The notes: generated by a model not told the origin, from the letters alone. DNA of 64,000 nucleotides from Escherichia coli (GCF_003334315.1 NZ_QOWR01000019.1), one strand, 5' to 3'. Positions 4 through 40,324 are shown, numbered from the stretch's first letter. Made by a program: numbers and translations.

Positions 4-90
4 GTAGGCCGGATAAGGCGTCCCCGCCGCATCCGGCACAGGCACCGTGCTGATGTCTGATGCGACGCTGGCGCGTCTTATCAGACCTAC
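4..90. repeat. BIME: two REP (repetitive extragenic palindromic) units in opposite orientation, artJ-artM intergenic
   Basis: GC-rich palindromic units gccggataaggcgt..gccgcatccggca and tgatgcgacgctggcgcgtcttatcag..cctac match the E. coli REP family. Confidence 0.8.
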
Positions 91-3206: not shown

Positions 3207-3722
3207 TTAGCGATTCTCGATGGACTGACGGAGCGTACCCGCCGTGGCATGAACGCTACCGCCTAAGTAACGCACATCGTCGATGACCCAACACTGGCCT
3301 TCCTGAATCATTAACACTTCATCCTGCCAACCCTGGTCACCCTGTTTGAGATCCACGCGCAATGGAATGTTACGGGCATCACGATTAGGGATAGTCGATG
3401 CACTGGCAACGTGGGCGCTATCTGGCAAGGTGGTTCGACTGGAGAATGGATCGTTGGTCAGTAGTTCCCGATGGTTATTATCCCGGGAGGCATCGCTAAG
3501 CAGTGTCGCCAGTTTGTCGCTCAGATAAGGGCGCAAGGCGGTGATGTCGTTGCTGCGGTGCAAAATGCGGTAGTCATAAAATTGCTGGGCCACGTTATCC
3601 GGGCCTCCTTCAACGCAAGGACCACTGCGTGTGCCGTTATCTTTATAAGCTGGAGTGACTGTGGTGCAGGCACTGAGGAGCAGTGCGCAGGGGATAAGCA
3701 TTGTCAATTTGCTGTAGCGCAT
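3207..3722 (-). CDS. ybjP: lipoprotein YbjP
   Basis: 171-aa ORF with lipobox LLSAC after signal peptide. Confidence 0.9.
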   Translation of the reverse strand: MRYSKLTMLIPCALLLSACTTVTPAYKDNGTRSGPCVEGGPDNVAQQFYDYRILHRSNDITALRPYLSDKLATLLSDASRDNNHRELLTNDPFSSRTTLPDSAHVASASTIPNRDARNIPLRVDLKQGDQGWQDEVLMIQEGQCWVIDDVRYLGGSVHATAGTLRQSIENR

Positions 3723-13212: not shown

Positions 13213-14112
13213 TTACGCAGAGAAAAAGGCGATGAGGATCGGCACTAACAGGCTAAGAATAAAACCGTGAACAATTGCCGCCGGGACCATATCCAGCCCG
13301 CCAGTACGTTGAAGAACGGGCAGGGTGAAATCCATTGATGTGGCACCGCATAAGCCCAGTGCAGTAGAGCGGCTGCGGCGAATCAGCCCAGGGATCAACA
13401 TAATAGCAATCAGTTCACGGGCCAGATCATTAAAAAACGCCGCGCTCCCGATTACCGGGCCAAAAGATTCGGTCAATAAAATACCGGAAAGAGAATACCA
13501 GCCGAAACCGGAGGCCATTGCCAGCGCGGTATTGATGGGGAGATCAAGAATAAAGGCGTTAATTAAACCACCAATTAATGAACTGGCAACCACCACCACG
13601 GCGACAATCATTCCCCGGCGATTAAGGACAATCTGCTTTAAGGTCATGCCATTATTGCGCAACTGAATACCGACGAGGAAAAGTAGCAGAATTAACGTGT
13701 ATTCGCTGGCTTCGGTCGCGTGTTGTAAGAAAGCCAGTCCACTCAGACCAATGGCAAAACCAATCACTACTACGCCGCACAGTTTTAGCGACTCCAGCGC
13801 CATCGCAATACGCGACGGGAGTTTTTCTTGCTGATGGTGATTGCGCCATGGCAGGCCTCGCTCCAGCCACATCAGGGCGGCAATATTACATAGTAAAATA
13901 ACGGTAATACTGACAGCAGAATAATGCAGAATCGCCAACAGGTTACTGGCGAGGTTATCGAGAAACGCCAGACTGATACCCATAAAAAAGAGAATAAGGT
14001 AAACCATCCAGCTTAATAGCTGATTAATAACTTTTAATGCAGCTTTTTGGCGAAGCGGAATGAGGTAACCCACAATCAGGGGAACCAGAATGATTAACAG
14101 CCCAGAAAACAT
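13213..14112 (-). CDS. ybjE: inner-membrane lysine exporter YbjE/LysO
   Basis: multi-TM ORF; start placed at internal ATG (MFSGLLIIL) giving 299 aa. Confidence 0.88.
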   Translation of the reverse strand: MFSGLLIILVPLIVGYLIPLRQKAALKVINQLLSWMVYLILFFMGISLAFLDNLASNLLAILHYSAVSITVILLCNIAALMWLERGLPWRNHHQQEKLPSRIAMALESLKLCGVVVIGFAIGLSGLAFLQHATEASEYTLILLLFLVGIQLRNNGMTLKQIVLNRRGMIVAVVVVASSLIGGLINAFILDLPINTALAMASGFGWYSLSGILLTESFGPVIGSAAFFNDLARELIAIMLIPGLIRRSRSTALGLCGATSMDFTLPVLQRTGGLDMVPAAIVHGFILSLLVPILIAFFSA

Positions 14113-14567
14113 GAAAACCCAGTCCTTGCAAAGATGAAGTCGAAATGCGCGATGACACACTACTGAAAGCGGAAGGACGAGTAAAGTTGCAATTAAAAGG
14201 AAATGTTATGCATAAGGAGCAGTAGAGTATTCGTTTTCATTTAAAGATATTCTTGCGCTTTAATTACAAACTGCACCGATGTTGGTGGCGTCAAAATCGC
14301 CGAGGCGTTCCCTGAAGGCCGGGGCAGCCCACATGGATGTGGGCTGAGGGCGCGTTTTACAGGGATGTTACCTCGCGCCCGACCCGGTAGCCGTAAGGGA
14401 TAAGTCGAGGGCACCGCGCAGCGGCGATTTTGTTCGCCAGAGCCCGGGGGTGCAGGGGGCGGCGGCGATTGGCCGCCCCCTGCGCGCTCCTTGCGCCAGT
14501 GGCAATATGTGGCTTAGCTCATGAAAGGAGCGCAACAAGATGATGAATCAACATATAACAACATCTT

Positions 14568-14595
14568 AAAAAAAGGCCTGACATTACGCCAGGCC
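14568..14595 (-). terminator. rho-independent terminator of aqpZ
   Basis: hairpin ggcctg..caggcc preceded on + strand by A7 (U-run on minus strand) immediately 3' of aqpZ stop. Confidence 0.7.
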
Positions 14596-14606
14596 TTCTG
14601 CGTTAA

Positions 14607-25005: not shown

Positions 25006-25210
25006 GTTCACTGCCGTACAGGCAGCTTAGAAAAACCTACCGTCTTGGCTAGCGGTTGCAGCGAACGTTCACTGCCGTACAGGCAGCTTAGAAAGGAACA
25101 ATCTTGCAAAGGCTGTGAAAGTTGGCGTTCACTGCCGTACAGGCAGCTTAGAAATTCACAGGTAACATACTCCACCCACCATGTTCACTGCCGTACAGAC
25201 AGATAAAATG
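25006..25210 (+). CRISPR. orphan type I-F CRISPR array remnant: 3 intact 28-bp repeats plus 1 degenerate terminal repeat
   Basis: repeat gttcactgccgtacaggcagcttagaaa at 25006-25033, 25067-25094, 25127-25154; degenerate copy gttcactgccgtacagacagataaaatg at 25183-25210; spacers of 33, 32 and 28 nt; no cas genes in window. Confidence 0.92.
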
Positions 25211-25211
25211 C

Positions 25212-25241
25212 GAAAAAAAAGCTCGCACTTTCGTACGAGCT
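25212..25241 (-). terminator. rho-independent terminator of serW
   Basis: hairpin agctcg..cgagct with A8 on + strand (U-run on minus) directly 3' of tRNA. Confidence 0.7.
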
Positions 25242-25253
25242 CTTCTTTAAATA

Positions 25254-25341
25254 TGGCGGTGAGGGGGGGATTCGAACCCCCGATACGTTGCCGTATACAC
25301 ACTTTCCAGGCGTGCTCCTTCAGCCACTCGGACACCTCACC
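25254..25341 (-). tRNA. serW: tRNA-Ser (long variable arm, 88 nt, encoded CCA)
   Basis: reverse complement reads ggtgaggtgtccgagtggctgaaggagcacgcctggaaagtgtgtatacggcaacgtatcgggggttcgaatccccccctcaccgcca. Confidence 0.95.
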
Positions 25342-40086: not shown

Positions 40087-40106
40087 TACCCAATTTTTCT
40101 GAATCT

Positions 40107-40133
40107 AAAAAGCGCCTGCGGGCGCTTTTTTTG
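40107..40133 (+). terminator. rho-independent terminator of serS
   Basis: hairpin agcgcc-tgcg-ggcgct followed by T7. Confidence 0.8.
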
Positions 40134-40140
40134 TCTCCCT

Positions 40141-40154
40141 TTGATACCGAACAA
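40141..40154. promoter_or_regulatory. FNR-type site upstream of dmsA
   Basis: ttgataccgaacaa approximates TTGAT-N4-ATCAA; dmsABC is a known FNR-activated anaerobic operon. Confidence 0.45.
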
Positions 40155-40324
40155 TAATTACTCCTCACTTACACGTAATACTACTTTCGAGTGAAAATCT
40201 ACCTATCTCTTTGATTTTCAAATTATTCGATGTATACAAGCCTATATAGCGAACTGCTATAGAAATAATTACACAATACGGTTTGTTACTGGAATCAATC
40301 GTGAGCAAGCTTGAGTGAGCCATT

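Follow-up and report, generated by a model that had tools for sequence, protein, structure and literature searches.

The GC-rich, inverted-repeat-dense DNA between lysO (ybjE) and aqpZ in the 64,000-nucleotide stretch of Escherichia coli DNA analyzed here (referred to as the window) is very probably RRS-lysO, a Replication Risk Sequence whose folded G-rich strand, as lagging-strand template, arrests the polymerase so that a post-replication gap remains. The element has already been named and was studied experimentally in 2023-2026, so that its detection here is a rediscovery.

Identity and Location of the Element

The non-coding repeat unit occupies positions 14263-14545 (+ strand) of the window, between the start of lysO (14112, − strand) and the stop of aqpZ (14607, − strand). 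In alignments these limits were common to all full-length copies, namely the lysO and dusC copies in both orientations and the diverged copies referred to here as type 2. A first-pass annotation, made from the sequence alone, had placed an element at 14285-14530; the element is real, and the true unit is slightly larger than that interval. The sharp contrast in composition that had drawn attention to it was confirmed, with a GC content of 0.57-0.73 across 14250-14549 and 0.36-0.41 in the flanking intergenic DNA. Its reported lack of any real ORF also held, as the ORFs overlapping it are all mechanical ones of 37-57 aa. Among the matches listed for complete E. coli genomes, the genome records carry no annotated feature under the RRS.

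The identification as RRS-lysO follows from a combination of sequence identity, coordinates, motif content and pairing. The lysO-aqpZ region of the window is 99.8% identical to that of K-12 (NC_000913.3) over 521 aligned bp. The extended lysO RRS clone (Pham et al., 2024), given as 168-434 bp upstream of lysO, corresponds to 14280-14546 (+) when counted from the lysO start at 14112, and within it the RRS proper (222 bp, about 14281-14502, +) is nearly identical to a partner copy at dusC. The published G-quadruplex (G4) motif GGGGGTGCAGGGGGCGGCGG has a single exact match in the window, at 14446-14465 on the + strand. The RRS were described as a pair of GC-rich 222-bp repeats, almost perfect, of which one lies by lysO and the other by dusC, both at ~650 kb from dif (Pham, Wood, Dunbar, Cox, and Goodman, NAR 2024, PMC11194060). 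In locus, lysO-relative coordinates, G4 motif and dusC partner our element is the one treated in that series of reports (NAR 2023, PMC10287960; NAR 2024, PMC11194060; bioRxiv 2026, 10.64898/2026.06.16.732529), with no sequence difference from the published description. As cited in PMC11194060, the same three-copy repeat, two copies full and the third partial, had earlier been named TRIP1 in the repeat survey of Rudd (1999), and a function was never attached to that name. The RSA repeat (150 bp, 6 copies) was an earlier candidate identity, and RRS was adopted instead.

At 0.915 Mb of K-12 the gene order is colinear with that of the window, whose + strand has a GC skew of +0.031, from which we infer that the + strand is the lagging-strand template. 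The G-rich strand of RRS-lysO is likewise assigned to the lagging-strand template by PMC11194060.

Published Replication Behavior and Proposed Mechanism

By ssGap-seq, Pham et al. [quoted passage not shown] In vitro, Pol I, II and IV halt at the G4 on the G-rich strand, and the RRS G4 strand impaired M13 replication ~two-fold (PMC11194060). After double inversion in the laboratory, the RecA/SSB gap peaks were absent at the inverted loci and supercoiling was shifted much as by double deletion, both changes altering it genome-wide (Pham et al.). Clean deletion of both copies proved unobtainable, at least one copy being reported as conditionally essential, and no apparent effect was reported for single deletions (Pham et al.). 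In a single-molecule assay, gap formation was observed and was less frequent in the reverse orientation (bioRxiv 2026, 10.64898/2026.06.16.732529).

A DNA-level mechanism, as published, is the best supported for RRS-lysO. As the fork unwinds the RRS, the G-rich strand (+, lagging-strand template) would adopt a G-quadruplex along with stable hairpins. At this folded strand the lagging-strand polymerase would stall, release and restart downstream, and a gap of up to ~2 kb, loaded with SSB and RecA, would be left behind. At the Ter macrodomain's edges, such gaps may work as topological relief valves; the relief valve, or a role as Ter macrodomain boundary, is an explicit hypothesis of the RRS authors. 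According to the same authors, the only other example of a gap-triggering bacterial G-quadruplex is the pilE G4 of Neisseria gonorrhoeae, which by description differs from the RRS in sequence and serves pilin antigenic variation.

Copies in E. coli and Relatives

When 5426 complete E. coli genomes were searched with the element by megablast, matching places were recovered in every genome (5426/5426), 1-8 per genome with a median of 3, and 2-4 copies occupy the same loci throughout. Four family members were found in K-12 MG1655. The first is the full lysO-aqpZ copy. The second, also full, lies across dif from the first, between yohP and dusC at 2,229,115-2,229,386 on the minus strand, in the opposite orientation, and is 94% identical over 272 bp; the corresponding partner in the genome of the window falls outside the 64 kb. 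The third, between putP and efeU, has lost its central 125 bp, and the fourth, a diverged type 2 copy lying between yegH and asmA, is represented by its 3′ portion. A full type 2 copy is present at yegH-asmA in 1485 of the 5426 genomes; that of strain EC958 (L135, 2501-2784) combines a core like that of the TwoAYGGAY RNA family, discussed below, with a G-rich hairpin that has the same loop as in the RRS. In the K-12 remnant (L174, about 3487-3700), 178 bp of the 5′ part are deleted between TACCCAAT and TACCCGAT. A REP-like sequence was observed after the type 2 element at yegH-asmA.

Recurrence at matching places in all 5426 genomes bears out an initial suggestion that the element is a class of intergenic repeat distinct from REP. 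The model for the REP-derived, nucleoid-associated RNA naRNA4/CssrE gave no match in the region even at E up to 10. The same model detected a copy elsewhere in the window, at 7-87 (+), with 75.5 bits (gathering score 59.5), and near-threshold naRNA4/CssrE-like matches adjoin yohD in two of the extracted loci (L001 and L002). REP/BIME elements resemble the RRS in being structured and dispersed among intergenic regions, often immediately downstream of a gene, and in having proposed roles in DNA topology. REP units are, however, much shorter than the RRS and have copies in the hundreds. By description, boxC is a GC-rich intergenic repeat of E. coli like the RRS, but it is 56 bp long, has ~33 copies and carries an intrastrand triplex motif, whereas the RRS is ~280 bp long with 2-4 copies.

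Two further observations were made among these copies. In two unrelated strains an IS1A stands inside an RRS-bearing intergenic region, that of lysO-aqpZ in H1 (H31) and that of yohP-dusC in ES2 (H108), where it splits the match by ~780 bp. Pseudocitrobacter faecalis has a full RRS (L086, 1853-2141, −) and, ~160 bp away in the opposite orientation, a partial second copy (2299-2432, +) that covers profile positions 143-278.

Natural Orientation Polymorphism

At lysO-aqpZ, the K-12 arrangement was found in 4027 of the 5426 genomes (at ≥80% coverage), and in 1048 (~19%), including EDL933 and other O157:H7 strains, the element is reversed. The reversed lysO allele is ~91% identical, has other short spacers on both sides and lacks the aqpZ terminator hairpin. 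For the yohP-dusC locus, the K-12 arrangement was found in 3319 genomes and the reverse in 1999 (~37% of 5426). Since these 1999 exceed the 1399 genomes that remain when the K-12-type lysO arrangements are subtracted (5426 − 4027), at least ~600 genomes must have the dusC copy reversed and the lysO copy in the K-12 arrangement. Flipping through a large inversion between the two RRS copies was considered and rejected, as lysO-RRS-aqpZ and yohP-RRS-dusC are neighbors in every arrangement.

In O157:H7 PV15-279, the one genome of this lineage followed at both loci, both copies are reversed and gene order is as in K-12. The local GC skew is +0.048 at lysO and −0.026 at dusC, with signs matching K-12, so that the G-rich strand lies on the leading-strand template at both loci. 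This arrangement is that of the laboratory double inversion, in which gap peaks are absent and supercoiling resembles that of the double deletion. Both the lack of conservation of the arrangement in nature (lysO copy inverted in 1048/5426 genomes, dusC copy in 1999/5426) and the doubly inverted O157:H7 genome with K-12-like local GC skew speak against the G4/lagging-strand model as it stands. The occurrence of both orientations at both loci, with a major pathogen lineage doubly reversed, offers a ready-made test of whether lagging-strand G4 gaps are a selected function. In the searched text of the RRS papers we found no mention of natural orientation variation or of the type 2 copy at yegH-asmA.

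Secondary Structure and Its Conservation

Folded as single-stranded DNA, 14263-14545 reached −82.4 kcal/mol on the + strand and −78.7 kcal/mol on the − strand, compared with shuffle means of −57.8 and −52.5 (z = −6.2 and −6.4; 0/200 shuffles as stable). Folding of both strands had been named in the first-pass annotation as a check, and at z about −6 it supports a structured element. All four inverted repeats listed there lie where they had been placed, three of them perfect (10, 12, and 9 bp) and one of 16 nt with 88% complementarity. The last of these forms the closing helix P1, with the 5′ arm CAAAATCGCCGAGGCG at 14292-14307 (+) and the 3′ arm CGCAGCGGCGATTTTG at 14417-14432 (+). In the consensus structure P1 is extended by an outer helix, and the two together enclose a multi-branch junction. 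Hairpin 1 (14325-14346, +) has a perfect 10-bp stem, CAGCCCACAT/ATGTGGGCTG, and its loop 10-mer ACATGGATGT (14331-14340, +) is invariant in 11/11 aligned copies. Hairpin 2 (14348-14380, +) has the stem GGGCGCG/CGCGCCC and the loop 10-mer ACAGGGATGT (14359-14368, +), replaced in other alleles by ACAAGGACGT or ACAGGACGT, with GGA always kept. Downstream of P1, the published G4 motif on the lagging-strand template (14446-14465, +) is overlapped by the 5′ arm of hairpin 3 (14452-14483, +), a perfect 12-bp stem of a G-rich and a C-rich arm, GCAGGGGGCGGC/GCCGCCCCCTGC, with the 8-nt loop GGCGATTG. Hairpin 4 (14484-14533, +) pairs GCGCTCCTT (14484-14492) with AAGGAGCGC (14525-14533) over a perfect 9 bp around a variable 32-nt loop.

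Conservation of this fold was assessed in an alignment of 11 copies, comprising two type 2 copies, the lysO and dusC copies of K-12, O157-type alleles, and copies from E. albertii, Pseudocitrobacter and a representative of an E. coli clade. Of the 76 pairs in the consensus structure, 10 are kept through changes on both sides, which answers positively the search for compensatory changes across relatives that had been proposed at the outset. In the type 2 copies, P1 changes from CAAAAT/ATTTTG to GTAAAT/ATTTAC and the stem of hairpin 4 from GCGCTCC/GGAGCGC to CGTTCAC/GTGAACG. The stem of hairpin 3 co-varies as well and its loop is conserved, being near-invariant among the 11 copies with C for T in a single one. 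Because the type 2 copies exchange whole helix halves in a compensating manner, folding as a single strand is under selection, be it as DNA or as RNA. Invariance is greatest in the two GGA hairpin loops and not in the G-runs. The G4 model leaves this invariance unexplained, and the invariant loops, together with the resemblance to TwoAYGGAY described below, suggest a sequence-specific partner outside that model.

Several other features of the fold were considered as candidates. At the right edge of the element, a Shine-Dalgarno-like AAAGGAG is followed after 8 nt by a 9-codon ORF, ATGATGAAT...TAA (MMNQHITTS; 14540-14569, +). It was rejected as a gene, since each copy has a different version of it (9 aa, 3 aa, 12 aa, or none) and its AAGGAG is half of a co-varying helix in which the change of AAGGAGCGC to AAGTGAACG in type 2 copies is compensating. 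A tRNA-like CCA end on the − strand (GACGCCACCA) was set aside as no T-arm was seen. Domain V of a group II intron and a retron msd were also discarded as readings of the 12-bp hairpin, the bulge being absent and no reverse transcriptase lying nearby.

Resemblance of the Core to TwoAYGGAY and CsrA-Type Sites

An additional or ancestral role of the core, compatible with the DNA-level one, deserves mention as possible though rather unlikely. The segment 14291-14430 (+) would be, or derive from, a TwoAYGGAY-type RNA, in which two hairpins with CsrA/RsmA-type sites stand at the tip of a long helix, are transcribed with the 3′ region of a neighboring gene, and bind a CsrA dimer or another loop-reading protein. 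In the Rfam scan, TwoAYGGAY (RF01731, clan CL00106) was the best match to this segment over the full model (1-168), with 30.6 bits and E = 0.017. Counting the window, three diverged copies have it as their best match, in each case along the full model and with the GGA strand, and the scores of the window, of the copy of type 2 (31.5 bits) and of an O157-type copy from dusC (25.9 bits) are all below the gathering score of 43; the RRS are accordingly classed here as resembling TwoAYGGAY and not as members. The Rfam clan CL00106 holds both TwoAYGGAY and CsrB.

The likeness extends to layout. TwoAYGGAY RNAs (RF01731; Weinberg et al., 2010) have two adjacent GGA-loop hairpins inside a long P1 and occur as multi-copy repeats in gamma-proteobacteria. 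In the RRS the P1 helix closing two hairpins is present in the same way, with its 16-nt arms, outer helix and compensatory changes. Loop 1 reads AUGGAU and fits AYGGAY; loop 2 reads AGGGAU, with a purine at Y. In addition to the sub-threshold score and this second loop, the RRS differ in having two extra hairpins, one of them G-rich, which are absent from non-enterobacterial relatives. In the alignment of Weinberg et al. (2010), Psychromonas ingrahamii has this layout in a repeat of several copies, with AGGGAC in the second loop, and there an AT-rich hairpin follows where the RRS has the G-rich one.

Both loops also resemble binding sites of the CsrA family. The loop 10-mers ACAUGGAUGU and ACAGGGAUGU, at predicted hairpin tips, fit 10/10 positions of the RsmE consensus A/U-CANGGANG-U/A, and the second loop, as UACAGGGAUGU, fits the CsrA SELEX consensus RUACARGGAUGU (both consensuses as quoted in PMC6849547). 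The GGA motifs in hairpin loops fitting the CsrA/RsmE consensus are a feature in common with CsrB, CsrC and RsmZ (clan CL00106), but the RRS has two exposed GGA sites whereas 13-22 GGA motifs are given for CsrB and CsrC.

Species-representative genomes were then scanned for the two loop 10-mers 14-30 nt apart. At least 120 loci were recovered, in Vibrio, Psychromonas, Shewanella, Colwellia, Acinetobacter, Xanthomonadaceae, Firmicutes and Spirochaetota, and as the pattern was taken from the loops of the window itself, these loci illustrate a family and are no independent proof of homology or common descent. Among the matches listed, the loop pair sits on unrelated stems, often in several copies per genome, and the long flanking helices appear to co-vary between copies in the few compared by eye. 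Internal wobble pairs counted on the GGA strand in 98 distinct cores among the matches listed were 29 G-T and 5 A-C, an excess which indicates that the GGA strand is the folded one. With a whole-unit nhmmer profile, the full RRS architecture was recovered at the sequence level only from enterobacterial loci among the matches listed, and the non-enterobacterial relatives listed have only the core in common with it. A canonical G4 lies nearby in 2/116 of the non-enterobacterial loci among these matches, which again speaks against a G4-centered account of what is conserved. A general link of the wider family to the lagging-strand template was considered and is unsupported, as flanking GC skew among the matches listed was positive at 37 and negative at 48 loci (p = 0.28). 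By crude ORF calls, the core relatives listed tend to sit downstream of a co-oriented ORF (39 vs. 21).

Position within transcription units points in both directions for an RNA. The GGA strand is sense and 43-70 bp downstream of a gene in 3/4 E. coli arrangements (dusC in K-12; yohP and aqpZ in O157), but in the window it is antisense to both neighboring genes. Neither strand of the element yielded a consensus promoter or terminator. In the gene table of a CsrA CLIP-seq study (Potts et al., 2017), which is ordered by gene and not by intergenic region, ybjE and dusC are marked ‘No’ in 4/4 yes/no columns, taken here as peak calls. Selection on folding of single-stranded DNA would, moreover, keep the same base pairs. 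The structured non-coding RNA that had been among the first suggestions is thus backed by its compensatory helices and by the sub-threshold 30.6-bit Rfam match, and disfavored by the missing promoter and terminator and by the CLIP-seq table, which flags neither neighbor; the Rfam scan itself returned a best match that stays under its gathering score.

We further propose, with low confidence, that in the RRS we may see how the TwoAYGGAY family is represented in enterobacteria, as a branch of its own. Selection would then keep the CsrA-type GGA loop pair on its long helix, which a loop-specific protein would read in RNA or in single-stranded DNA, and the G-rich hairpin and the gaps would be a lineage addition or by-product. 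If so, doubly reversed strains such as O157:H7 would not be defective but normal. Through its invariant loops and the sub-threshold match, the RRS is tied to a large family of unexplained structured repeats grouped by Rfam with the CsrA decoy RNAs. Neither a link of TwoAYGGAY or CsrB to the RRS nor the sharing of the core alone by non-enterobacterial relatives was found in the portion of the literature covered by our search.

Three arrangements of related hairpins were noted during the scans. In some marine gamma-proteobacteria the double-hairpin unit occurs in tandem at two loci (L087, 12805-12895; L089, 2076-2412), with 2-3 pattern matches at constant spacing. Another locus (L031, 3526-3569) has tandem copies of one hairpin unit. 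These tandem arrays differ from the dispersed pattern of the other loci. Two viral contigs from IMG/VR (L153 and L167) contain three consecutive small hairpins, each with the ACATGGATGT loop (ATAT-ACATGGATGT-ATA...), which resembles a compact multi-GGA RNA on a phage genome.

Possible Spread of the Repeat and Possible Effects on Neighboring Genes

To the DNA-level mechanism we also compared the idea that the element is a decaying copy of a structured repeat spread by mobility or recombination, MITE-like or REP-like, with replication effects as a by-product of its stability; this we consider improbable. It would agree with dispersed copies at four loci, with the occurrence of both orientations at one locus between different spacers, with a full type 2 copy in only 1485/5426 genomes and with the multi-copy nature of core-sharing relatives in other genera. 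Deletion derivatives are also present. The copy of strain SA186 is without 14303-14381, that of MS7163 is without the core and part of hairpin 3, and the putP-efeU and K-12 yegH-asmA variants are internal deletions between short direct repeats, which in the full element bound the segment missing at putP-efeU. However, at the RRS loci examined there were no terminal inverted repeats, target-site duplication or transposase, and no empty site was found at lysO-aqpZ or yegH-asmA among the genomes sampled. Direct evidence of RRS transposition was thus not found at the loci examined. The constancy of just 2-4 copies at the same loci in 5426/5426 genomes, the maintenance of helices by compensatory change and the conditional essentiality of at least one copy according to the RRS papers are equally at odds with decay. 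An association with phages was rejected, as the 35 pattern matches in viral contigs (IMG/VR) were almost all coding sequence or tandem repeats and included no (0) RRS-like copy.

A cis-regulatory leader of lysO (ybjE), as the first-pass annotation had suggested, or a 3′ element of aqpZ is extremely improbable: the element does lie between both genes, and in O157-type strains it directly follows aqpZ with no terminator-like hairpin detected between them by our scan, but the same element in near-identical copies adjoins unrelated genes (yohP-dusC, putP-efeU, yegH-asmA), it takes either orientation between lysO and aqpZ among strains with neither gene lost, a separate aqpZ terminator-type hairpin (14573-14597) precedes it in the window, and single deletions are described as having no apparent effect (Pham et al.).

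Other Structured Features in the Window

Two further features of the 64-kb window were recovered in the Rfam scan. The enterobacterial sRNA family STnc130 matched strongly at 40100-40234 (−) with 140 bits (gathering score 55). Beside a tRNA gene, three CRISPR-DR4 direct repeats ~61 bp apart, with 50.1 bits each (gathering score 35), were detected at 25006-25154 (+) and 25257-25341 (−). The CRISPR-DR4 repeats at 25006-25341 look like the small orphan type I-F array near clpA-infA of E. coli.
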